A DNA stretch of 64,000 bases from Sulfurovum sp. (GTDB lineage: Bacteria; Campylobacterota; Campylobacteria; Campylobacterales; Sulfurovaceae), in assembly GCA_027065815.1 (NCBI GenBank), contig JAMONL010000222.1, positions 2,650-66,649 on the forward strand, in the 5' to 3' direction. Position numbers and translations under genes: made by a program. Under the pieces are notes generated by a model that did not search any database, was not told the DNA's origin, and saw only the letters and a list, made by a program, of their open reading frames with translations. This document shows, piece after piece, positions 33,248 to 46,048 of this stretch; position 1 is the stretch's first letter; each line of letters begins with the position of its first letter.

Positions 33248-33754
33248 TTACATCTTTCTCAAAAATACTAACAAGCCCTCGATTATCTCCTTAGGCGTTG
33301 GAGGACATCCCGGAATATGGTGGGCAATAGAAAGATGCGCTTCTGCCGGTGCCTTTATAGCAAAAGTCTGTTCAAAAGGGGCTTCCATGGCAGGACAGGC
33401 ACCTAAAGTGATAACCCATTTGGGTGCTGGCATTTGTTTAAAGGCATCCAGTACATGCGGTACCATGTTGAAGGTCATCAAACCGCTGAGTAGCATGACA
33501 TCTGCATGTCTGGGGCTGGCAACGAAATAAATACCCAGTCTCTCCAGATCATAGTAAGGGTTGGAAAGTGCATTACACTCGGCTTCACAGGCATTGCAGC
33601 TGCCGCTGTCCACCATACGTATTGCCAGGCTACCGGCAAATTTTTTACTAACAAGACTTTTTATTTCTTTTTGAATGACTTTAAGTTCCCGGTCTATTTC
33701 AGGATTTTCAGTCAAGAGACCTGTTTTTATTCGTCTGTTCCAAAATCGTATCAT
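33248..33754 (-). CDS. Ehr small subunit (NuoB/HyfI-like)
   Basis: GSCNACE, SPRHAD, GAC, PGCPPTP. Confidence 0.92.
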   Translation of the reverse strand: MIRFWNRRIKTGLLTENPEIDRELKVIQKEIKSLVSKKFAGSLAIRMVDSGSCNACEAECNALSNPYYDLERLGIYFVASPRHADVMLLSGLMTFNMVPHVLDAFKQMPAPKWVITLGACPAMEAPFEQTFAIKAPAEAHLSIAHHIPGCPPTPKEIIEGLLVFLRKM

Positions 33755-35118
33755 AAATCATTTCCTGCATAACTGAGATCACAGCTTTTATTGATGAGCG
33801 GAAAATCGGCAATAATATTACCCGGCATCATTAAGTGGAGTGCCTGCCAGTTAACAAAGCTTGGATCACGGACAAAAAAACGTTCGATCACACCCTTATT
33901 GATCTCTATGCTCATAAAGAGTTCACCGATGGAACTTTCAACAAAGCTGAAATACTCTCCATCTTCTACTTCACCCAACTTCACAGCTTCACATGCTTCT
34001 ACCCTAAAGTTTCTCATCATCAGCAGTGTATTTTTTACTTCTTCAAGTCTTATTTTGAAGCGTGCCGCCACGTCAGCACTTTTTTGCGTCTGCATTACAA
34101 ACCCATGCTCATGGTAAAACGGTTCATCTCTTCTGTCAAGTCTAAGACCGGAAGCACGTGCAACAATGCCTACCGTATCGTATTTGAGCGCTTTTTCCGT
34201 TTTGAGAATACCGGTAGTATCGAAGCGGTCCCAGAGTGAGGGTATATCGATGATCCATGATTCAAAGAAAGTGATGGCTTCCTGCAGAGTATCAAGATAA
34301 ACTGTCATAGCTTCAGTGTCAAGTGTATGTGCTTCAAAATCTATGGCAGCAAAACCGAAACGGTGTCCTGTCACTCTTTTAAGTTCCCGTCTTGCTTCTT
34401 CCGAGAGTTTGGAGGCAAAGGCAAGTGCCACAGAGAAACCGGCATCATTGGGAATGAAACCAAGATCGGTCAGATGATGGATCGTACGTTCAAGCTCCAG
34501 CAGCAAGGCATGGTATTTATGGTTTACGTCAGGAAGTTGACTTTTTGTTGCCTGTAAAACAACATCTCTCCATGCGATCTGATACGCGATACTCTCATTG
34601 CCGCTGATACGCTCGATGACCGGTTTGGCGTCTATGAGTGTTTTACCCTCCAACATCTTTTCAATGGCACGATATTTGTAAAAATGTCTGACCTCCTGAT
34701 GCAGCATCTCTTCCCCTGCCTGTGAAAAATGGAAATGACCGGGTTCAATGATCCCTGCATGGATCGGACCGACAGAGACTTCAAACACACCGTCACCACC
34801 TATTGCTTCATATTTATACGCTTTGTAATCATCAAAAGCCAGACTTTTCTTTTGAAAACTTTTTTGCATTGGGTGGATACTTTTTGGAAAGCGTTCCTGA
34901 TGCACAAGCGGCCGGTTATCAAAAGCATCTTCAATGAGTATGCCAAAATCATCATGCATCTTACGCTCGAACCAAATGGCAGTGGGATGTGTTTTGGTCA
35001 ATGTTTTGATACGCGGATCATTTTTTGGAACCTGTTCTTTTTCTACTGCTTCATCCCACACAGTCACCACTTCAAATATATTTTCAAGTTCTTTGGCATA
35101 ACGGGCGATCAGTCTCAT
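33751..35118 (-). CDS. Ehr large subunit (NuoCD/HyfG-like) without Ni-binding cysteines
   Basis: VGPIHAGIIEPGHF; ERISGNE replaces RxCGxC; ends DFPLINKSCDLSYAGNDL. Confidence 0.92.
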   Translation of the reverse strand: MRLIARYAKELENIFEVVTVWDEAVEKEQVPKNDPRIKTLTKTHPTAIWFERKMHDDFGILIEDAFDNRPLVHQERFPKSIHPMQKSFQKKSLAFDDYKAYKYEAIGGDGVFEVSVGPIHAGIIEPGHFHFSQAGEEMLHQEVRHFYKYRAIEKMLEGKTLIDAKPVIERISGNESIAYQIAWRDVVLQATKSQLPDVNHKYHALLLELERTIHHLTDLGFIPNDAGFSVALAFASKLSEEARRELKRVTGHRFGFAAIDFEAHTLDTEAMTVYLDTLQEAITFFESWIIDIPSLWDRFDTTGILKTEKALKYDTVGIVARASGLRLDRRDEPFYHEHGFVMQTQKSADVAARFKIRLEEVKNTLLMMRNFRVEACEAVKLGEVEDGEYFSFVESSIGELFMSIEINKGVIERFFVRDPSFVNWQALHLMMPGNIIADFPLINKSCDLSYAGNDL

Positions 35119-36530
35119 GCGATACTCCTCAAGTAGTCAAGTGATGCCGGAAGCATTAGTGCAGCAAGACAAAGTGCAAAGATGACCAGAGCAAACAGTT
35201 CACTGGCATACACTTTTTTCTCTTCCTCTTTGCCTTCATATTTCATAGACTGGTAGATCGCCACAAAACGGTAGAAAATGACAGAGAGCAGTATGAGCAG
35301 AAGCAGTATGGCAGCGATCATTGCCAGCATATGGTCACTGTGTTTGGCAGTTTCCATCATGGCACCAAATCCATAAAGTTCACTGAAGAACATCGGGCTT
35401 GGAGGCAGAGAGATGATCGCCAGTAAAAAGAGGGAAACAAGAAACCAAAAGAGTGTTCCTTTTTTACCCCTGTACCCTCGTAAAGCACCTGCAATACGGT
35501 ATTTTCCATTGGACTCCAGTACACCTGTAGAGAGAAAGAGTGCCGGTTTCAAAAAAGCATGTGCACCAAAATGCAGCAGTGCGGCAAAGGTACCGCCACT
35601 TACCCAGAACAGCACAATAAGTGCCATATGTTCAATCCCCGAAAGAGAAAAGAGTCGCATAAAGTCTTTTGCCCTGAAGATCAGGAAAGAGACAATAAAA
35701 ATGGTCAAAAGGGTATAGACAAACACAAAGCCATAGAGATGTGCATAATTGATCTCCATGGCAATTTGACTGAAACGAAAAAAGCCGATAAGCACTGCCG
35801 ATTCCAGAATACCGCTGAAAAGTGCAGCAACAGGATAAAAAGAGGCACGTTCAATATTTGCCAACCAGAGGTTCATGGGGAAGAAGCCCATTTTTACGAA
35901 CATACCTACTGTAGCAATAGCAAACCCCATTTCAAAAAGGAACGGAGACGGAATCTCTTTGGCGTGGGAAAGTAGCAGGTCAAACTGCATCGCCTCCTCC
36001 CCAAGGATCGGCTTGGCACTCGCATACATTAGAATGATCCCGAACAAGACCAGTGAAATGGCAATGGCACCCACGATCATATAGTTCCATGCCTCTTTAT
36101 GGGCTGCACGGGTATGGTTAGTTTTGATCATATAGACGGTTGAAAGTGTGGCAAGCTCCAGTCCGATCCAGTAGATACCCATGTGATTTGAAAGAATTGA
36201 AATACTCAGACCTACCCAGAAAATGGCAAAAAACCGGTAAAACCGGCGGTAGGCATTGGCGGAGACCTTCACATGCTTGTCCAGTGTCAAGAGTGCCAAT
36301 GTCACCCCTATACCGACAATAGACGATACCAGTAAAATATAGGTATCAAGTTTATCTGCAACCAGATATGACCCCGCAATAGCATAAGGCTTTGGTAGCA
36401 CAAACAGTTCAATGATCGGCAAAAGTATGGCAAAGGAACTGACCGGTAAAAGAAACTTCGCTTTTTTATTCTTGAAAAAACTGACAATAAACATAATAAG
36501 TGCAGGAAGCACAAGCAGTGTAAGCATCAT
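35115..36530 (-). CDS. Antiporter-like subunit (HyfF-like)
   Basis: WIGLELATLST, EAWNY, KMGFFP. Confidence 0.9.
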   Translation of the reverse strand: MMLTLLVLPALIMFIVSFFKNKKAKFLLPVSSFAILLPIIELFVLPKPYAIAGSYLVADKLDTYILLVSSIVGIGVTLALLTLDKHVKVSANAYRRFYRFFAIFWVGLSISILSNHMGIYWIGLELATLSTVYMIKTNHTRAAHKEAWNYMIVGAIAISLVLFGIILMYASAKPILGEEAMQFDLLLSHAKEIPSPFLFEMGFAIATVGMFVKMGFFPMNLWLANIERASFYPVAALFSGILESAVLIGFFRFSQIAMEINYAHLYGFVFVYTLLTIFIVSFLIFRAKDFMRLFSLSGIEHMALIVLFWVSGGTFAALLHFGAHAFLKPALFLSTGVLESNGKYRIAGALRGYRGKKGTLFWFLVSLFLLAIISLPPSPMFFSELYGFGAMMETAKHSDHMLAMIAAILLLLILLSVIFYRFVAIYQSMKYEGKEEEKKVYASELFALVIFALCLAALMLPASLDYLRSIA

Positions 36531-37120
36531 AGGTTTGCCTCCTCATTATGGAAAAGCAGGTTAATGACCACGATCGCCATCAGCAGATCAAAGAAAATAC
36601 CCAGTTCCACCAGCATCGGCATACCGTCTGTAGCGGTAATACCCAAGAGGAACAGTGCATTTTCCATACTTAGAAATCCAATGATCTTCGGTGCCACATT
36701 GCGATGTTCCATCATGAGAAGCAGCGACAGAAAAAGTGAAGAGATACTGATAGCAATATAGTTGGCATTGCCATGTATCATATGTGTGATCGGTTCGGCA
36801 AGGTAAAAGGTAAAAACCAGGATCGCCGGAATCAATATAATGGCATACTGCACTTTGATCTCAGGCTGTATCTGGCGTACAAAATGGAATTTGGAACTCA
36901 AGTTCTTAAGCAGATAGGGAATACCGATCGCTTTGATGAGAATAGTGGCAATACCGGTGATTAGCATAGCCTTGTCATCCAGTGTTCTGCCTATAACAAG
37001 CGCCAGCAGACCCAGGATCAGTGAATTCATCGAATACCAGAGTATCAGACGGTAGAGTCTTGAGGTGAACAGTGCAACGATCAGTGTTGCCAAAAAAAGT
37101 CCAATAAGGAAATCAACCAT
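36527..37120 (-). CDS. HyfE-like membrane subunit
   Basis: GFLSMEN, MPMLVELGIFFD. Confidence 0.9.
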   Translation of the reverse strand: MVDFLIGLFLATLIVALFTSRLYRLILWYSMNSLILGLLALVIGRTLDDKAMLITGIATILIKAIGIPYLLKNLSSKFHFVRQIQPEIKVQYAIILIPAILVFTFYLAEPITHMIHGNANYIAISISSLFLSLLLMMEHRNVAPKIIGFLSMENALFLLGITATDGMPMLVELGIFFDLLMAIVVINLLFHNEEANL

Positions 37121-37125
37121 ATCTG

Positions 37126-38046
37126 CTACGCTCCCAGTACATAAAATGTGATCAATGACAAAAAAGCAAAGACAATGGCAATACCCAATAGATTGGGTAC
37201 TTTAAAAAGTCTCAGCTTGGCAGTATTGACCTCGATCAGTGCCACTGCAGCAGCAATAGCAAAGAGTTTAACAATAAAAAGTCCAAAAGCCACCGGTGCT
37301 GCATACTGCAGACCAAAAGGCATAAAGAGTGAGGCGAACAGAGAAGCAAAGATAACAAACTTGACAGAGGCTGCCGATTCTATGATCGCCAGATAAACTC
37401 CCGTAAGATCAAGGATCATCGCTTCATGCACCATCGTCAGTTCCAAATGTGTCTCAGGATTATCCACAGGGATACGCCCATTTTCTGCGATCAGCAAAAT
37501 GAAAAAAGAGATAGCGGCAAAGAGAAAACTTGCCATATGTTCTTTAGGGAAATGGGCAGCCAGATTGACGCCTGCCTGTCCCACACCAAGATCACCTGCC
37601 ATCATGGAGACAGAAAAAACCGTTAACACCATGGCAGGCTCCACCAGTGCAGCGATAAAGGCTTCACGCGAACTCCCCATACCTCCGAAAGCAGAAGCAC
37701 TGTCAAGCCCCAGCAGCATTAAAAAGAATGTGGAAAGTGCAATAAGCCCCGTAATCGTAAAGGCATCCACAAAACTGACATAATAGGCACCCTGCACCAC
37801 CGGCGGCAAAAAGAAAAGCGTCACGAGCAGAGGAGAGAGTACCAGGAACGGTGCAACCCTGGTAATGGCACTTGTTTCTGAAGAAATCACTGTCTCTTTT
37901 TGCATCAGTTTGGCAAAATTCCGATAGCCCTGAAAAAGAGAAATGGGTTTTTTGTACAAGAGCAGCATTTTGAGTGCTTTAATAAAATCCAGTAAGATCG
38001 GAGCAAGCAGCAGCAGTATCACAATGGTCAAAAGATACATGATCAT
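37126..38046 (-). CDS. NuoH/HyfC-like subunit
   Basis: GSSRE, ENGRIPVDNPETHLELTMVHEAM. Confidence 0.92.
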   Translation of the reverse strand: MIMYLLTIVILLLLAPILLDFIKALKMLLLYKKPISLFQGYRNFAKLMQKETVISSETSAITRVAPFLVLSPLLVTLFFLPPVVQGAYYVSFVDAFTITGLIALSTFFLMLLGLDSASAFGGMGSSREAFIAALVEPAMVLTVFSVSMMAGDLGVGQAGVNLAAHFPKEHMASFLFAAISFFILLIAENGRIPVDNPETHLELTMVHEAMILDLTGVYLAIIESAASVKFVIFASLFASLFMPFGLQYAAPVAFGLFIVKLFAIAAAVALIEVNTAKLRLFKVPNLLGIAIVFAFLSLITFYVLGA

Positions 38047-39938
38047 TTCCTATCTCCTATGATCAATACTTTGATCGAAATGATCATGACAACCCCTTCA
38101 AGTACCAATGTCGCCCAGGAAAAATCGTGTGCAAAGATACGATAACTGAAAAGTACGGTCAGCATTAGATTAAAGATCATCGCTGCATAACGGGTCTGTT
38201 CAAAATGGGAGAGACGATAGACCCAGTAACTGATACGGTTGGCTGCTTTCCCTACAGATGTATAAAGTGTAGTTTCAAAGAGCGGTTTGACATGTACTTC
38301 ATAATGGGAATCACTGAATTTACTCTGATGTCCTGCAATATTCTCCTTGGAAAAATGTTCATCCGGCTTGTAGAGCCAGCTGAAGAACCTTCGTATCGGT
38401 CCGGCAAATCCTGTTGCAGAATATTGCGTACGGGCAGAAGTCCGATAACCGCAAGCCCAGGTATGATGGATACGTTCTTTGACTTTTAAGGTTTTGTAGG
38501 CGAACATCAACAGTACAGTGATCCCTAGGAGTGCCAAAAGAAGGATGAGTGGAGAGACGACCCCTCCATTGGAGCTTACCGAATGCATATGCCAAATGCC
38601 GTCAGGAAAGATCTTGTCATACACAGAGAGATGTCCCAGTCCGGAAAGGACTTTATCGAACCAGCTTATATAAAAGGGGGTCAAGAGCATCAGGGAAAGT
38701 ACCACCATGGCCATCAGTATCATCCCGGCACGCATGAGAAAATTCACTTCATGGGCATGTTTGGCATTGCTACTTCTATGTAAGCCAAGAAAAGTAATAC
38801 CATAGGCTTTGACAAAACAGGCGATCGCCAATCCTCCTGTCATTGCCAGTGCAAAAATGGCAAAAGGAATCGCCAACTTTAAAGAGGTGTTATCAAGATG
38901 GCTAGAACCAAGCATGGACTGGAAGATCATCCATTCACTTAAAAAGCCATTGCTCGGAGGTAAGGCAGAGATAGAGATAGATGCCAACAGAAACGTTAGC
39001 GCAGTCACAGGCATGGCCTTGATAAGTCCACCATATTTCTCAATATTTTTAGTCTGTGTCTGATGCAACACTGCTCCTGCACCCATAAAAAGCAGTGATT
39101 TAAAACTCATATGGTTAAAGGTATGAAACAGTGCTGCAATGAAAGCGAAAGAGCTTAACACTTTTAAACCCATACTGTCAAAGATCATCCCCATTCCAAA
39201 CCCGATCAGGATAATACCGATATTTTCAATAGAGTGATTTGCCAGCAGTGCTTTGATATCATGCTCGCTCAGGGCATAAAGCACCCCGATTAGAGAAGAG
39301 AGTGACCCGATAACAAGAATGAACACACCCCACTCCATAGGCCAGGGGTAAAGTACATCAAAAAGAAAACGGAACAGTCCGTAAATAGCAACTTTGAGCA
39401 TCACCCCACTCATCAGGGCAGAGACTGGAGAAGGAGCTTCCGGATGGGCATAAGGCAGCCAGACATGCAGAGGTACAGCACCCGCTTTACTTAAAAAACC
39501 CAGTATCATAAAGAAAAAAAGCAGAGTTGGGTAGGCAAATTCGGAAACAATGCCATGCATAGCAGAAAATCCCAGTTCCAGATCACCGTCTGTTGCAATG
39601 AGAAAAAAGAGCAGCAGAAAAACAAATCCGAAATGGGTCATAAAAAAGTAAAAGCTGGCAGCTTCAAGCGTTTTTTTCTCTTTGCCTTCTGTCAGGATCA
39701 ACTGCCAGCTGGTAAGGCTCATCAACTCCCAAAAGAGCAAAAATACCAAAGCATTGGCAGAGACCACGACACCAAGCATTGAAAGGATGAATGTAAAGTA
39801 GTGTAGTTGATAGTGTGCTTTTCTCTCGATATGGGAAAGGTAACCTGACGAATAAAAAATATTAGGTATGGCACCCAGGACAATGAGTGCTACAAATACC
39901 AAAGAGAGGGTGTCAAAAATAAACATAACGATCATCAC
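38043..39938 (-). CDS. Antiporter-like subunit (HyfB-like)
   Basis: WELMS, KAGAVPLHVWLPYAHP, HSIENIG, WACGY. Confidence 0.92.
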   Translation of the reverse strand: MMIVMFIFDTLSLVFVALIVLGAIPNIFYSSGYLSHIERKAHYQLHYFTFILSMLGVVVSANALVFLLFWELMSLTSWQLILTEGKEKKTLEAASFYFFMTHFGFVFLLLFFLIATDGDLELGFSAMHGIVSEFAYPTLLFFFMILGFLSKAGAVPLHVWLPYAHPEAPSPVSALMSGVMLKVAIYGLFRFLFDVLYPWPMEWGVFILVIGSLSSLIGVLYALSEHDIKALLANHSIENIGIILIGFGMGMIFDSMGLKVLSSFAFIAALFHTFNHMSFKSLLFMGAGAVLHQTQTKNIEKYGGLIKAMPVTALTFLLASISISALPPSNGFLSEWMIFQSMLGSSHLDNTSLKLAIPFAIFALAMTGGLAIACFVKAYGITFLGLHRSSNAKHAHEVNFLMRAGMILMAMVVLSLMLLTPFYISWFDKVLSGLGHLSVYDKIFPDGIWHMHSVSSNGGVVSPLILLLALLGITVLLMFAYKTLKVKERIHHTWACGYRTSARTQYSATGFAGPIRRFFSWLYKPDEHFSKENIAGHQSKFSDSHYEVHVKPLFETTLYTSVGKAANRISYWVYRLSHFEQTRYAAMIFNLMLTVLFSYRIFAHDFSWATLVLEGVVMIISIKVLIIGDRK

Positions 39939-40095
39939 TCCAAAACTGTGTAATCATATACGGGTTCGGTGGTGTTGCCATCGGACAGGAGGGCTGTATG
40001 AGTCCTAAAATATTTACAGAATTATACTCCGAAAGTACTTAAGATAACTTCTGTTTAAGATTTTTCATTATAATAAGCTTTTTAGGAATTTTGAC

Positions 40096-40299
40096 ATGTC
40101 AACATCTACACTGCTTATTTATATTTTTTTCGGTTCAGTGGCATTATCATACATGATGTACGGGAAGTCCCAGAGAAAAGCCATAGCGCTACTCTCCGGT
40201 ATAGGTTTGGCCGTATTACCCTATTTCAGCCTGGATCTATGGCTCATGGTATTTTTGTCTCTTCTAATGATGGCTTTACCTTTTTTTATACGCATATAA
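40096..40299 (+). CDS. Small membrane protein
   Basis: Hydrophobic 67-aa ORF with AGGA RBS. Confidence 0.65.
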   Translation: MSTSTLLIYIFFGSVALSYMMYGKSQRKAIALLSGIGLAVLPYFSLDLWLMVFLSLLMMALPFFIRI

Positions 40300-40382
40300 A
40301 GTGATTTTGATACGTATCAATCAAAAAAGAGTGGTAGCAGAGAATATACTACCCACTATCAATATTAACAATATCAATTTTT

Positions 40383-41060
40383 CTACGTTCTCCAAACCAC
40401 TTTCAACTCTTTAGAAAGCCGTGATGTATCAAAAGGGTTTTTTTCTTCTTTAACCCTTCCGATCGTATGCTCAGTAAAGACAAAGGGCTGCAGATAATAC
40501 GTGCCCTTATATCCTTTTTTAAGTAGGTCTTTGATGATCCTGTTGATCTCTTCTACTCTTAACAAATCACTATGCACTGTTGTCCTCACCTCAAAAGGAA
40601 ACTGCTTTTGGATCAGAAAATTAAGTGTTTTGGAAAAAGTGTCAAAATGTTTATCTTTTGTTATCTCAAAATATTTCTCTTTGGGGGCTTTGTAATCAAG
40701 TGCAATATAATCAACCAGGTCATTCTCTACCAAAGCATGAACCCTGTCAAAATTTATACCATTGGTATCCAGCTTGATCTTGAATTTTAGCTGCTTGATC
40801 TTTTGGCAGAACCCTACCAGGTCATCATAGAGTGTAGCTTCTCCTCCAGAGAGAACCACTGCTTCAAGCAGTCCTACTCTACTCTCCAAAAAAGCCAATG
40901 CCTCCTCCTGGCTTATCTTCCCCTCTCCAAATACGATGTCTTTATTGTAGCAGTATACACAACGCATATTGCACTTGGCAAACCAGAAAATAGTTGCCAG
41001 GTGATCCGGATAATCCAGAGCTGTGAAAGGAGTGATGTCGTAAAGAGGTTTATGCAGCAT
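40383..41060 (-). CDS. nrdG: Anaerobic RNR activating enzyme (radical SAM)
   Basis: DYPDH, CNMRCVYCYN, SGGEAT, EVRTT; likely start ATG 41060. Confidence 0.93.
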   Translation of the reverse strand: MLHKPLYDITPFTALDYPDHLATIFWFAKCNMRCVYCYNKDIVFGEGKISQEEALAFLESRVGLLEAVVLSGGEATLYDDLVGFCQKIKQLKFKIKLDTNGINFDRVHALVENDLVDYIALDYKAPKEKYFEITKDKHFDTFSKTLNFLIQKQFPFEVRTTVHSDLLRVEEINRIIKDLLKKGYKGTYYLQPFVFTEHTIGRVKEEKNPFDTSRLSKELKVVWRT

Positions 41061-41223
41061 TGATCTGTGATGCTCTTTCAAGAAAAAACTTTCTCTCTTG
41101 ATGCTCGCCTTTTTTACCGATATTAAAACTCTCGACCGGTCTGTGGTACCCCATTACTCTTGTATACACAATACATTTTGTTCTTTTCTCTTTTAACGAT
41201 TCAAGTCTTTTATTTTGATTCAT
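41050..41223 (-). CDS. Stand-alone NrdD glycyl-radical domain (57 aa)
   Basis: CIVYTRVMGYHRPVESFNIGKKGEHQER; AAGGAG RBS before ATG 41223. Confidence 0.88.
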   Translation of the reverse strand: MNQNKRLESLKEKRTKCIVYTRVMGYHRPVESFNIGKKGEHQERKFFLERASQINAA

Positions 41224-41552
41224 TTTATCTCCTTTAAAAAAATATCTACACACGCTTGTGCATTATGGACTAACATCTCTATCTCCTCTTTACTGGCATC
41301 ATCGATATGAATACCGCAAACCACCAACAGGTCTTCACCCATTTTATCATAAATCATATTTGCCATTTTCTCTGAAATAACATGATCCTGATGTCCTTTT
41401 TTGATCATGGTCTGCAAATGACCTTTTCCTTCTATCAAGGTTGCCGAACCCATATGCTCCTCCTCTCCGCCTGTGATAATAACAAGCCTGTCCTTACCTA
41501 TGGCATAAGACTCTAAATGGACACGGTAGCGCCCTTCTCCTGCACTGATCAT
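41220..41552 (-). CDS. LpdD/PAC4-like small His-rich protein
   Basis: GGEEEHMGS, GHQD, VCGIHID pattern; TGATG and ATGA overlaps with neighbours. Confidence 0.7.
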   Translation of the reverse strand: MISAGEGRYRVHLESYAIGKDRLVIITGGEEEHMGSATLIEGKGHLQTMIKKGHQDHVISEKMANMIYDKMGEDLLVVCGIHIDDASKEEIEMLVHNAQACVDIFLKEIK

Positions 41553-43648
41553 CAACACACCTCTTGCAAAATTTCTTCATCACATTTTGGACAATACTCA
41601 TGCTCACCGGAAAGATAACCATGTTTCTCACAAATAGAAAATGTCGGTGTTACCGTAATATACGGCAATCTAAAATTACTAATAACATTTCTCACCAGTT
41701 TTCTTCCTGCTTCTGCAGAACTGATCTTCTCTCTCATATAAAGGTGCAATACCGTTCCCCCTGTATATTTGCACTGCAGATCATCTTGCAAAATCAATGC
41801 TTCAAAAGGATCATCCGTATAAAATACAGGGATCTGGGAAGAGTTGGTATAGTAGTTGTTCTCCTTCGTTCCTGCCTGGATGATATCGTCATATCTTTTG
41901 GCATCTTCTTTGGCAAACCTGTATGTCGTTCCCTCTGCCGGTGTTGCTTCCAGATTGTAGAGGTTCCCAGATCTCTCTTGAAAATCTTTGAGCTGATCTC
42001 TCATAAAATCCAGGATCTTCATCGCCATCTCTTTTCCAAAGGTATCGGCTATCGTATGCCTGTCATTGGAAAAATTTCGTATCATCTCATTCATCCCGTT
42101 GACACCGATCGTAGAAAAGTGGTTGTTAAATCCTGGAAGGTACCTTGCCGTATAGGGGTAAAGACCTCTATCATACATTTCCTGGATAAAGATCCTTTTT
42201 TTCTCAAGTGTTGAATAGGCATACTCCATGAGTTTGGAAAGTCGCGCAAAAAGCTTCTCCTCATTACCGGCATAAAGATACCCCAGTCGCGCCATATTGA
42301 TCGTCACCACACCGATACTTCCTGTCATCTCCGCACTTCCAAACAACCCTCCGCCTCTTTTCAAAAGTTCACGAAGATCCAACTGAAGCCTGCAGCACAT
42401 ACTTCGCACATGTCCCGGTTTATATGCTTCTTCATTGGGTATCAGTTCACCCTTTTCATTTCTCACATACTGACTGCCTATAAAGTTTTGAAAATAGGAA
42501 GATCCGATCTTTGCCGTATTTTCAAAAAGGATATCCGTATTTTCTCCATACCAGTCAAAGTCTTCAGTGATATTTACCGTAGGAATGGGAAAGGTAAAGG
42601 GCTGTCCGTTCTTGTCGCCTTCCGTCATCACTTCATAATACGCTTTGTTAATAAGATTCATTTCAGGCTGAAAATAGCTGTAAGTCATACTCTCCAGAGA
42701 GGTAATACTTTCATCTCTCTCCTTGGCACGCGTCAATAACTCTTCATCATCCAGTCCTGAAAAAAGGTGATGCTGATCTCTTGTCGGTATCTGATCCTTC
42801 AAATCGGCAGGAACCGTCCAGTCAATGGTAATATTAGTAAAAGGGCTTTGCCCCCAGCGTGCCGGGACATTAAGATTGTAAACAAAACTTCTTATGGCTT
42901 TTTTGATCTCATCAAACGAAAGTCTGTCTTTAAATATATAGGGTGCCAAGTAGGTATCAAAGGAAGAAAATGCCTGTGCCCCTGCCCATTCACTCTGCAA
43001 AATACCCAAAAAATTTGCCATCTGTCCCAATGCTTCTCTAAAGTGTGACGGTGCGCTGCTCTCTACTCTGCCTCTGACCCCGTTAAACCCTTCATCTAAA
43101 AGTACTCTCAAGCTCCATCCTGCACAATATCCGGTCAAACAATCCAGATCATGGATATGATAATCTCCGTCTCTGTGTGCATACCCCTCTTCTTTGGAGT
43201 AGATCGTATCGAGCCAAAAGTTGGCAATCACCTTGCCTGCGGTATTATTGACAAGTCCGGCATTGGAGTAGCCGGTATTTGAATTAGCATTGATCCTCCA
43301 GTCGGACTTATCGATATACTCTTTGATGGTCTGTGTGGAGTTGATGTATGTAGTATCTTCATTCAGCCCCAATATCTGTTCTCTTTGGATTTTATGCATA
43401 TGACGATAGAGCATAAAAGACTTCATCACTTCAAAATGCTGATGGTCATAAAGTACCTTTTCAATGCTGTCCTGTATCTCTTCAACAGAGATCTCATCTC
43501 TGTTTTTGATACTCTCCATTAACTCCGAAAAAACACTCTTGTCATAGGTTTTTACTTCACTTTCAAAGGCTTTTTTAATAGCATCCTCTATCTTGAAAGG
43601 TACAAATTTTTGAGAACTTCCGTCTCTTTTTATAATTGTTTTTATCAT
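41552..43648 (-). CDS. nrdD: Class III ribonucleotide reductase core lacking the C-terminal glycyl loop
   Basis: ATP cone IIKRDG, YCAGW, RSMCCRL, EATPAE; ends at Zn site CEKH...CPKC. Confidence 0.95.
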   Translation of the reverse strand: MIKTIIKRDGSSQKFVPFKIEDAIKKAFESEVKTYDKSVFSELMESIKNRDEISVEEIQDSIEKVLYDHQHFEVMKSFMLYRHMHKIQREQILGLNEDTTYINSTQTIKEYIDKSDWRINANSNTGYSNAGLVNNTAGKVIANFWLDTIYSKEEGYAHRDGDYHIHDLDCLTGYCAGWSLRVLLDEGFNGVRGRVESSAPSHFREALGQMANFLGILQSEWAGAQAFSSFDTYLAPYIFKDRLSFDEIKKAIRSFVYNLNVPARWGQSPFTNITIDWTVPADLKDQIPTRDQHHLFSGLDDEELLTRAKERDESITSLESMTYSYFQPEMNLINKAYYEVMTEGDKNGQPFTFPIPTVNITEDFDWYGENTDILFENTAKIGSSYFQNFIGSQYVRNEKGELIPNEEAYKPGHVRSMCCRLQLDLRELLKRGGGLFGSAEMTGSIGVVTINMARLGYLYAGNEEKLFARLSKLMEYAYSTLEKKRIFIQEMYDRGLYPYTARYLPGFNNHFSTIGVNGMNEMIRNFSNDRHTIADTFGKEMAMKILDFMRDQLKDFQERSGNLYNLEATPAEGTTYRFAKEDAKRYDDIIQAGTKENNYYTNSSQIPVFYTDDPFEALILQDDLQCKYTGGTVLHLYMREKISSAEAGRKLVRNVISNFRLPYITVTPTFSICEKHGYLSGEHEYCPKCDEEILQEVC

Positions 43649-43708
43649 CACTGTTTCTCCCACACTTTTACAAGGAGCCCATTATAATAGAAGCTGTTTC
43701 CAAATGGT

Positions 43709-43722
43709 TTGACAACTGTCAA
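43709..43722. promoter_or_regulatory. Fnr/NssR-type box of the nrdD operon
   Basis: TTGACAACTGTCAA; TATAAT at 43681-43686 on minus strand; second box TTGATTAAAGTCAA at 43767-43780. Confidence 0.75.
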
Positions 43723-43801
43723 TAAATCAAAGATCTTTGATCGAAACATTTTATTTCTGTTATTTTTTGATTAAAGTCAATCAATTTATTTTAATATTAT
43801 G

Positions 43802-44821
43802 CTATGTGGTTTCCTGAATGACTTTTACCATATCAACCAGTCTTTTGGCATACCCATATTCATTATCCTGCCAGGCTGAGATCCTTAGCAGATCTCCTCC
43901 TGAAAGATCAGTCAAAGGAAGATTGATCACAGCACTATGCGGATTCTGTATATAATCGTTGGATTCATTTGGAATATTTGTAATATCAAGTATATCTCTG
44001 TACGAGGATCTCACCTCTTCCTCCAATCGTTGATTGACCTCTTCTCTTGTATAGCTCCCCTCAAGTTGGATACTTAGATCATAAAGGGTAGTACTAGGGA
44101 TGGGCACTCTAATACTTTTAGCATAAAGCCTCTCTTTGAGATGTGGGAAAAAACAGCCCGTCGCTTCTGCAGCAGAACTCATAAGAGGAATAATATTCTG
44201 TGTTGCAGAACGTGTTCTTCGTATATCTTTTGAGTAGTGTTTTCCATCAAGCAGATTCTGGTAACTCGTATAACTGTGATACATACTCATCATCGCAGCA
44301 TTGATGCCAAAATACTTATCGATGATCTTAAATATGGGGACAATGGCATTGGCGGAACAACTGCTGTTCGAAATAACAGACTCCTGTTTATACGCTTTGT
44401 CGTTTACACCCAAAATATACGTTGGTGTATCATCTGTTGCCGGTGCAGAGATAATCACTTTCCTTACACCATTCCTGATCAAAGGCAAATTCGATCCTGT
44501 TGTCAAAAACATACCACTGCATTGCAGAACCACATCTACATTTAAATCGTTTATATCCATATTTTCAGGATCAGGTTCCGAAAAAAGTTTTATAACCTTA
44601 TCATCGATAAAAAGTCTATCTTCCTTTACACTTATAGTATAGTCAAGCATGCCATAACTAGAATCATATTTTAAAAGATATGCCATCTGCTCATAACTAT
44701 AGAGGTCATTGATACCCACTAACTCCAGACTCTCTTCTTCCAGTATGATGCGAGCAGCACTTCTGCCTATACGTCCAAAACCATTAATGAGAATACGTAT
44801 CTTTTCAGACTGCATAGGCAA
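43802..44821 (-). CDS. gap: Divergent type I glyceraldehyde-3-phosphate dehydrogenase-family protein
   Basis: INGFGRIGR, SNSSCSAN, WQDNEYGY. Confidence 0.88.
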   Translation of the reverse strand: MPMQSEKIRILINGFGRIGRSAARIILEEESLELVGINDLYSYEQMAYLLKYDSSYGMLDYTISVKEDRLFIDDKVIKLFSEPDPENMDINDLNVDVVLQCSGMFLTTGSNLPLIRNGVRKVIISAPATDDTPTYILGVNDKAYKQESVISNSSCSANAIVPIFKIIDKYFGINAAMMSMYHSYTSYQNLLDGKHYSKDIRRTRSATQNIIPLMSSAAEATGCFFPHLKERLYAKSIRVPIPSTTLYDLSIQLEGSYTREEVNQRLEEEVRSSYRDILDITNIPNESNDYIQNPHSAVINLPLTDLSGGDLLRISAWQDNEYGYAKRLVDMVKVIQETT

Positions 44822-44941
44822 TACTCCATGCAGGATCCATAACCATGATTCTATCCATACCGATACGGGATTTTGTCATAAAAACAACTGTTTGATGATT
44901 TTGCATAGTAAGCATTATAATGAAAATCCATGGTCAGAGTA

Positions 44942-44971
44942 TTGACAGGTATCAAACTTGATACTTGTCAA
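44942..44971. promoter_or_regulatory. Back-to-back Fnr/NssR boxes for divergent gap and nrdB
   Basis: TTGACAGGTATCAA-AC-TTGATACTTGTCAA; -10 boxes at 44914-44919 (-) and 44994-44999 (+). Confidence 0.8.
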
Positions 44972-45034
44972 CAGATTTAGAGAATCAAAAAGATAAAATG
45001 ATATACTAATTTGATAACAATACAGGAGAAGTTT

Positions 45035-46048
45035 ATGGATGTAACACATTATTATAACCCTCAGGGTGAAGAGATACTCGATGAAAAGATCTTTGGCGGG
45101 TCACCTACAGGTTTTGTAGACTTCAACCGTTCCAAATACCGTTGGGACAGCAATATTTATGACCTGATGAATGCCAATACCTGGTTCCCCTCAGAAGTCA
45201 ATACAAGTTCTGAAAAAAAGAGTTTTGACAAACTTACCGATAATGAACAATCCATTTACAAAATGACTTTTGCTCAACTCAGTTTTAATGACTCTGCACA
45301 GGAAGAGTACCTTTCCGACTTCAGACGTTTGGCAAACAACCGTCTGGTCAAATCCGTACTCTCTCTGCAGATCATGCAGGAGGTCAACCACTCCAAGTCT
45401 TATGCTGTACTTCTTGATGCCTGCGGAAATTCCGATGAAGTCTTTAACCTTTACAAATATGATGCCGCACTCAACAACAAAAATCAGCAGATAGCAGAAC
45501 AGTTCGCACGTTACATAGACGGCGGATCTGTAGACAAAATGCTGCTCTCTGCCATGGCTTCAGTAAACTTGGAAGGTATCTACTTCCTGCTCGGATTCTC
45601 CTACATCTACCTGCTAGGAGACAAAGTACCCGGAGCAAGAGATATGATCAAGTTCATCGCCCGAGATGAACTCAACACCCACTTGCCGCTTTTTGCCAAC
45701 ATCTTTAAAACCATCCAGAAAGAAAACAAGATACAAACTTCTACCATAGACGCTGCCTATATCATGATACAAGATGCCGTGAAGATAGAATTGGAATACG
45801 GGAACTATCTCCTGGATCAATTCCCTATTATGGGAGTGACCCCTGAACTGATGAAACAGACGGTACACAACTATGCCAATGACAGACTGACAAAGATCGG
45901 CCTTGATCCGATCTTTAAACAGACAAGCACAACCTACTTGCAAAAACTGGTCACCAAACATTTAGAGATGAATGAAGTCAAATCTAACTTCTTTGAATCC
46001 AATGTCTCCAACTATGCCAAATCCAGCATTGACCTGAATGACTTTTAA
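45035..46048 (+). CDS. nrdB: Class I ribonucleotide reductase beta subunit
   Basis: FND, EVNHSKSY (radical Tyr), EGIYF, RDELNTH, NFFE...NY; ATG 45035 with AGGAG. Confidence 0.95.
   Translation: MDVTHYYNPQGEEILDEKIFGGSPTGFVDFNRSKYRWDSNIYDLMNANTWFPSEVNTSSEKKSFDKLTDNEQSIYKMTFAQLSFNDSAQEEYLSDFRRLANNRLVKSVLSLQIMQEVNHSKSYAVLLDACGNSDEVFNLYKYDAALNNKNQQIAEQFARYIDGGSVDKMLLSAMASVNLEGIYFLLGFSYIYLLGDKVPGARDMIKFIARDELNTHLPLFANIFKTIQKENKIQTSTIDAAYIMIQDAVKIELEYGNYLLDQFPIMGVTPELMKQTVHNYANDRLTKIGLDPIFKQTSTTYLQKLVTKHLEMNEVKSNFFESNVSNYAKSSIDLNDF

Follow-up and report, generated by a model that had tools for sequence, protein, structure and literature searches.

A Sulfurovum class III ribonucleotide reductase locus with the predicted glycyl radical loop encoded by a separate small gene

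Single-chain class III ribonucleotide reductases (RNRs), as described in the accessible part of the literature, carry the glycyl radical domain at the C-terminus of the same chain. Where does the radical come from if the gene stops short of this domain? The question is raised by the nrdD locus in a 64,000-nucleotide stretch of DNA from Sulfurovum sp. (assembly GCA_027065815.1, contig JAMONL010000222.1, positions 2,650 to 66,649 of the forward strand; hereafter the window), in which a 698-residue NrdD core without a radical loop is accompanied by a separate gene for a 57-residue peptide. On the comparative evidence, the two products very probably constitute an obligate two-protein class III RNR, the glycyl radical being supplied in trans by the peptide. 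This reading is based on the co-occurrence of the two genes, purifying selection on the peptide, natural fusions, rearranged gene orders and lone copies of the peptide gene in phages.

The NrdD core and the radical-loop peptide

The core gene nrdD (41552..43648, minus strand, read from 43648 to 41552) encodes a protein of 698 aa with an ATP cone, a barrel, an MCCR finger loop, a CxxH/CxxC zinc knuckle and an acidic tail (DEEIL), and without a glycyl loop. It is matched in a Pfam search by PF03477 (ATP cone) and by PF13597 (NRDD) at profile positions 2-532 of 562 (529 bits), is assigned to NF006126 (PRK08270; 1085 bits against a cut-off of 548), and matches TIGR02487 (393 bits against a cut-off of 326). 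The substrate and finger-loop motifs HIHD164, YCAG174, MCCR417-420 (RSMCCRL) and TPAE569 are all present, and the predicted C-terminal zinc site comprises CEKH673 and CPKC686, which are invariant in 37 cores. The protein terminates nine residues past the zinc knuckle, with the C-terminus CEKHGYLSGEHEYCPKCDEEILQEVC followed by the stop codon. A motif scan of the core found no R..GY motif, and thus no RxxGY stands in the same chain as the barrel. The genome has no NRDD match other than the core and the 57-aa peptide; its assembly consists of 247 contigs and is 86% complete. Close homologues bear Sulfurovum names.

The missing segment is encoded 329 nt downstream of nrdD by a gene (41050..41223, minus strand) for a peptide of 57 aa, RTKCIVYTRVMGYHRPVESFNIGKKGEHQERKFF, which matches PF13597 at positions 531-562 of 562, precisely the end that is absent from the core. 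The radical motif of the peptide is RVMGY, and alignment through a single-chain relative (P0141) places it on the RITGY and RIVGY motifs of the P. copri and T. maritima NrdD proteins, respectively. In P. copri NrdD, according to the accessible text of PMC11226230, Gly711 is the radical site and Tyr712 a flap contact; because the glycine of RVMGY aligns with the Gly711 site, the residue of the peptide predicted to carry the radical is Gly25 (codon 41151-41149). The gene has a ribosome-binding site (RBS) of its own, AAGGAG (41229..41234, minus strand), located 5 nt before the ATG and inside the 3' end of the PAC_bac gene that lies between the two halves, with a pairing energy of -8.0 kcal/mol against the anti-Shine-Dalgarno sequence. 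The last 11 nt of the peptide gene overlap the start (41060) of nrdG (40383..41060, minus strand), which encodes a radical S-adenosylmethionine (SAM) activase of the NrdG2 type (225 aa; 185 bits against the TIGR02495 cut-off of 131), so that an activase is encoded nearby. An earlier note on this DNA had claimed that the NrdD motifs are present and the RxxGY loop missing, and that the loop is a separate open reading frame (ORF) at 41050-41223 with its own AAGGAG, coupled to nrdG; each of these points is confirmed, and the alignment with full-length NrdD identifies the peptide as the missing loop.

Modelled alone, the peptide yields a weak structure (mean predicted local distance difference test score, pLDDT, 62; predicted template modelling score, pTM, 0.33) with a helix at residues 3-9 and a hairpin, and this weak model gave no fold match. 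No sequence in the PDB is matched by the peptide or its profile. The peptide does match PHROG 4132, a family annotated as of unknown function.

Distribution of the split genes

In a survey across the order (151 genomes, drawn at 95% completeness, plus the source genome), the peptide is found in 83 genomes and this core type in the identical 83, which are kin and do not represent 83 independent events. Three of the remaining genomes have a distant NrdD alone (25-27% identity) and 65 have neither gene, while all peptide frames in the survey are of 52-129 aa. Among the named loci, which are the best 80 of 600 from 8 of the 64 parts of the collection and were picked by peptide likeness so that the rate is biased, 72 are split, none is fused and eight have no core in the locus. 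Five Campylobacter loci comprise the peptide gene and nrdG, with no core in the available upstream DNA (894 to 4001 nt).

The gaps within the split loci of this set range from -41 to +867 nt. The peptide gene follows nrdG in one locus (L126), and in another (L122) the halves are 5.2 kb apart with four signalling genes between them. Split nrdD genes occur in Campylobacterota, where they are also found in Nautiliaceae (L061 and L089), and in Bacteroidota, Cupriavidus, Bradyrhizobium and Paracoccus; this mapping across genomes bears out an earlier guess that the split is widespread. Two genomes possess the split operon twice (L006 and L023 in G021, L010 and L024 in G017), and the second core of G021 appears to be frameshifted. 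In L116 the peptide gene appears to be duplicated in tandem, but this apparent duplicate was dropped, as it contains an N gap and is likely a scaffolding artefact.

Integrity of the locus and predicted separate translation of its halves

That the split is an assembly error or belongs to a decaying pseudogene is extremely improbable, even if the fragmentation and incompleteness of the source genome noted above are in favour of such an explanation. A contig from run X2, obtained in a study other than that of the best-matching sequencing run for this stretch, which is a hydrothermal vent metagenome, extends across 41077-41607 with no differences and takes in the stop codon of nrdD, the intervening gene and the codons for RVMGY; the split therefore stands, since an independent contig bridges the junction. 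Run X8 contains the whole stretch at about 92% identity. In related genomes the peptide was found in 22 of 61 (24 loci), with all frames of 53-97 aa and several of the genomes closed, so the split is also present in single-contig genomes. Strong purifying selection on the peptide likewise speaks against decay: the median ratio of nonsynonymous to synonymous differences per site (pN/pS) is 0.12 (34 codons, 103 comparisons) and the four closest comparisons have a pN of 0 at a pS of 0.42-0.47, where the segment was chosen by motif pattern, which biases pN down, and pS is near saturation.

A single chain could in principle be made from both ORFs via frameshift, readthrough, ribosome bypass or splicing. 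The ORFs overlap or abut in many genomes, with gaps of -41 to about +50 nt, and intron-interrupted nrdD genes are known in phages, according to the accessible text of PMC3653736. Recoding is nevertheless very improbable and does not explain the split, because all three frame offsets occur among the 72 split loci (19, 33 and 20), the halves are separated by entire genes (within this genus by 329-971 nt, and in L122 by 5.2 kb), and the gene order is reversed in L051 and L098, where the peptide gene stands ahead of the core; the RBS of the peptide gene also argues for separate translation. An Rfam search of 39900-45100 found no intron families, and no self-splicing intron, intein, endonuclease or fixed frame offset was found at the break.

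Single-chain relatives and evolutionary history

Single-chain relatives, with at most 75% identity to the core, combine the knuckle and the loop in one protein. In the close fused relatives the linker between them has 8-61 residues, some linkers resembling a leftover core tail joined to a peptide start. A set of 150 distant cluster representatives contains 51 single-chain proteins, whose linker measures 8 residues in 46 cases and 10 in five, and 52 proteins that are loop-less and end after the knuckle, although these were classed from the core sequence alone and some may be fragments; the rest have no recognisable knuckle or end right at it. A narrower pattern applied to the same 150 gives 47 single-chain and 56 loop-less proteins. 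A cysteine located five residues before the loop arginine is present at all 105 chromosomal or plasmid peptide loci, in 51 of 52 close fused forms and in 17 of 51 distant fused forms, and a glutamate three residues past CPxC is found in 47 of the 52 loop-less cores.

A tree built from 76 rows, 39 of them split cores and 37 fused ones (hand-picked, with near-duplicates and fragments excluded, out of 61 listed cores and 56 long fused hits), requires at least ten changes between the fused and split states, five of which are forced by well-supported branches. The placement of all fused rows in one clade is rejected (approximately unbiased test, p-AU 5e-44), and both Bacteroidota and Campylobacterota include fused forms (e.g. 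in Chitinophaga silvisoli) besides split ones. The tree is unrooted, and for the inferred direction of change an old fission, followed by the acquisition of new contact ends and repeated re-fusion, would be the simplest reading of this history.

Many of the relatives P0242-P0391 are 800-1900 aa long and match in multiple stretches, which suggests that inteins are often inserted close to the finger loop. A glutaredoxin-like CxxC domain forms the C-terminus of some fused proteins (P0271 and P0304). In P0183, P0222 and P0169 the peptide is joined to radical-SAM sequence, and these proteins may be peptide-NrdG fusions or frameshift artefacts.

The radical site and Cupriavidus necator

Some points weigh against an obligate two-protein enzyme with the radical on the peptide. 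No RNA run is among the sequencing runs listed as containing this stretch. Fused forms recur inside the split clade, so the split is unnecessary for function. Finally, Siedow et al. are said to have found in 1999 that the G650A exchange abolished function in Cupriavidus necator, and reportedly named Gly650 of the core as the radical site.

The megaplasmid pHG1 of C. necator H16 carries a split operon (L105:18275-20648) encoding a core of 676 aa (76.2 kDa), a small gene of 66 aa that is labelled nrdD in RefSeq, and NrdG; identity to the Sulfurovum proteins over the aligned parts is 53% for the core and 71% for the peptide. In this core, position 650 falls on the glycine in CPTHGY, which is part of the zinc knuckle. 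The core might therefore form its own radical at the CxxHGY glycine (Gly677 in Sulfurovum, Gly650 in C. necator), with the peptide acting as a regulator or persisting as a leftover, and in agreement with this H676-G677-Y678 is invariant in the 37 cores and the position of residue 650 is confirmed. Such a core radical is quite improbable, as the HGY glycine comes immediately after a zinc ligand and is found together with RVMGY in almost every close single-chain relative, the solved NrdDs align their radical glycine with RVMGY and not with HGY, and a null mutant is explained by a broken knuckle. If the reported G650A result is as described, a split enzyme is functional in vivo, and its radical site has probably been misassigned. 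The accessible text of PMC2864759, citing Siedow et al. (1999), describes NrdDG of C. necator H16 as required for complete denitrification, which indirectly supports anaerobic ribonucleotide reduction by a split enzyme. The split nrdD operon of this strain is located beside nor and nos genes.

Lone copies of the peptide gene in phages

Viral loci (the best 80 of 279) contain the peptide alone in 79 cases, with no core or nrdG in the available flanks, and this holds for all 38 loci that have more than 3 kb on both sides. The set comprises 42 distinct peptides, and the radical glycine is intact in the phage peptides. No core was found in any of eight whole viral records, four of them at least 90% complete, in which positive controls were detected. 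Prophage-like regions of Campylobacterota also carry a lone peptide gene near holin, terminase or methylase genes (L069, L124 and L123), the gene being broken in L125; in L069 (4001-4177) it directly follows the holin gene. Searched at E 0.001, the curated phage genomes contained no match, and at E 10 they yielded only weak hits to the tails of full NrdD proteins. The lone phage copies imply that the peptide is able to act in trans on a host core, and in being a stand-alone small gene that is also phage-borne the peptide resembles GrcA.

Proposed mechanism and the role of oxygen

In the proposed two-protein enzyme, the 57-residue peptide would bind the 698-residue core and, after activation by NrdG, provide the radical in trans. 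By homology to the single-chain enzymes, NrdG would abstract a hydrogen at Gly25, the RVMGY loop of the peptide would insert into the barrel beside Cys418/419 of the finger loop, and the rest of the peptide would lie over the active-site flap in the manner of the C-terminal tail of single-chain NrdD. Conservation suggests that new ends have taken over from the covalent linker that was lost, namely the acidic DxE tail of the core and the R-x-x-C motif and short helix of the peptide. Oxygen would cleave the peptide alone.

Replacement of the peptide after such damage is plausible, if somewhat doubtful. The swapping in of fresh peptide is favoured by the lone phage copies and by the strong RBS, which is predicted to exceed that of the core in 22 of 26 Campylobacterota loci (taking the best of several starts in related loci) and does not do so in 12 Bacteroidota loci. 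With the same reserve, this would extend to a widespread class III RNR with an obligate, exchangeable radical subunit of 6.8 kDa, in which the peptide is made in excess, the core is reloaded and the phage copies sustain deoxynucleoside triphosphate synthesis in the host. The alternative of a neutral split, which concerns the replaceable part only, falls just short of an even chance: the two-protein enzyme would be the same, with the peptide bound once, no exchange and no benefit under oxygen. It agrees with the state changes on the 76-row tree and the scattering of its fused forms, with the presence of fused beside split forms in Bacteroidota and Campylobacterota, and with the occurrence of the split in Nautiliaceae, which are anaerobes. 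It is at odds with the glycine-intact lone phage peptides, which are sensible only if extra peptide acts on a host core, and with the stronger RBS of the peptide in the Campylobacterota loci, though not with the Bacteroidota ones. In the earlier note the radical carrier was held to be permanently separate, which the comparative evidence supports, and to be replaceable in a way that suits a microaerophile; such an adaptation is conjectural, given the at least ten fused/split changes and the fused forms in the same phyla.

Operon context and regulation

The gene between the two halves (41220..41558, minus strand) encodes a PAC_bac protein of 112 aa (PF21758) related to LpdD. PAC_bac is matched 16 times in this genus, in 15 of 81 genomes, and every match is located immediately after the nrdD core; the claim that a whole unrelated gene intervenes is thus right as to the sequence of the protein, while the constant context speaks against it. 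In split loci elsewhere the gene is mostly absent, and it contains stops in L118 and is reduced to a remnant in L119. PAC_bac was considered as a required partner and rejected, few of the 80 named loci having it (L025, L026 and L030). Because it has decayed in two loci and is absent from most split loci elsewhere, PAC_bac is accessory to the split nrdD. Some loci (L005, L006, L025, L030 and L116:1829-2311) have a NifU_N (IscU-like) gene of 160 aa between PAC_bac and the peptide gene, the product of which could serve the Fe-S loading of NrdG.

Upstream of nrdD there is a TTGAC-N4-GTCAA palindrome (43709..43722), which we take to be an FNR/Crp-type box, 22 nt upstream of a minus-strand TATAAT (43686-43681), and a second box, TTGA-N6-TCAA, at 43767-43780. 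A perfect 16-bp palindrome, ATCAAAGATCTTTGAT (43734-43749), lies between the two. The FNR-type box fits a predicted expression of nrdD at low oxygen. The window contains 14 TTGA-N6-TCAA boxes against 3.3 expected, spread over 10382-59043, with FNR-type boxes at 44942 and 44958 near the class I RNR small subunit gene (45017), and there appears to be a local FNR/Nss-type regulon that includes nrdD and this gene. The window is rich in denitrification genes (nitrate reductase-like, haem d1 and nitric oxide reductase-like), and a peroxidase is also encoded. Matches to an NrdR-box pattern occur at chance level (81 against 86), and promoter and terminator scans performed no better than chance.

In addition to the small subunit of class I, the genome encodes one large subunit of class I/II elsewhere. 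No match to PF01228 or PF02901, and hence no enzyme of the pyruvate formate-lyase (PFL) type, was found in this 86% complete genome. Directly downstream of nrdG are the six genes of a membrane module similar to complex I or group 4 hydrogenases (33248-39938, minus strand).

Relation to known systems and significance

The locus shares with single-chain NrdD/NrdG systems (P. copri 8P23, T. maritima 4COI/4U3E, S. thermophilus 9D3X and phage T4 1H78; the NF006126/PRK08270 type) the ATP cone, the barrel, the double-cysteine finger loop, the zinc site, RxxGY and an adjacent activase, and differs in that the loop and tail form a separate gene, the cut falling after the zinc knuckle and before the loop. 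The class II NrdJa/NrdJb of Pseudomonas aeruginosa belongs to the B12-dependent class and its second part has no protein radical; in the accessible literature it is a natural RNR split of a similar kind, with the C-terminal part as a second gene. GrcA/YfiD of E. coli and Y06I of phage T4 are likewise small stand-alone glycyl-radical-loop proteins for a large partner, with phage-borne copies. The peptide, unlike GrcA, has no PF01228 match (NRDD only) and is of 57 aa against 127, and whereas GrcA rescues an oxygen-cleaved full-length enzyme, the core here never has a loop of its own and the peptide would be obligate. The catalytic RNR genes nrdA and nrdD of phages can likewise be in pieces, interrupted by introns, inteins or homing endonucleases, the nrdA of Aeh1 being functional according to the accessible text of PMC3653736; in contrast, the present break has no intron or endonuclease, its site is fixed across phyla and the piece is mobile alone. 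The locus is thus an NrdD-like RNR that does not have the one-chain arrangement, and is GrcA-like in logic and not in family.

The accessible text of a June 2026 review with a focus outside RNRs (PMC13450708, section 5.3) gives spare parts as known only for formate lyases, their existence for glycyl radical enzymes beyond PFL being described as yet to be determined. No description of a split NrdD was found in the literature searched, which was accessible in part and included PMC9669993, PMC4390871, PMC8683613, PMC2795772, PMC5645315, PMC12662201, PMC3019208, PMC9531940 and bioRxiv 2025.01.15.633287, while supplements, RNRdb and subscription papers may mention one; the split NrdD is probably unpublished.

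If the proposed reading is true, this would be the first spare-part system beyond PFL and the first glycyl radical enzyme without the radical loop in cis, and the radical site of C. necator NrdD would be reassigned. A 57-residue peptide can be made, labelled and activated alone, which would make it a convenient NrdG substrate and allow a direct test of the spare-part idea. The NrdD genes of many denitrifiers and microaerophiles would need rereading, since the annotated large gene alone would likely encode a dead enzyme, and so would a class of small phage genes currently annotated as 'nrdD' or unknown.

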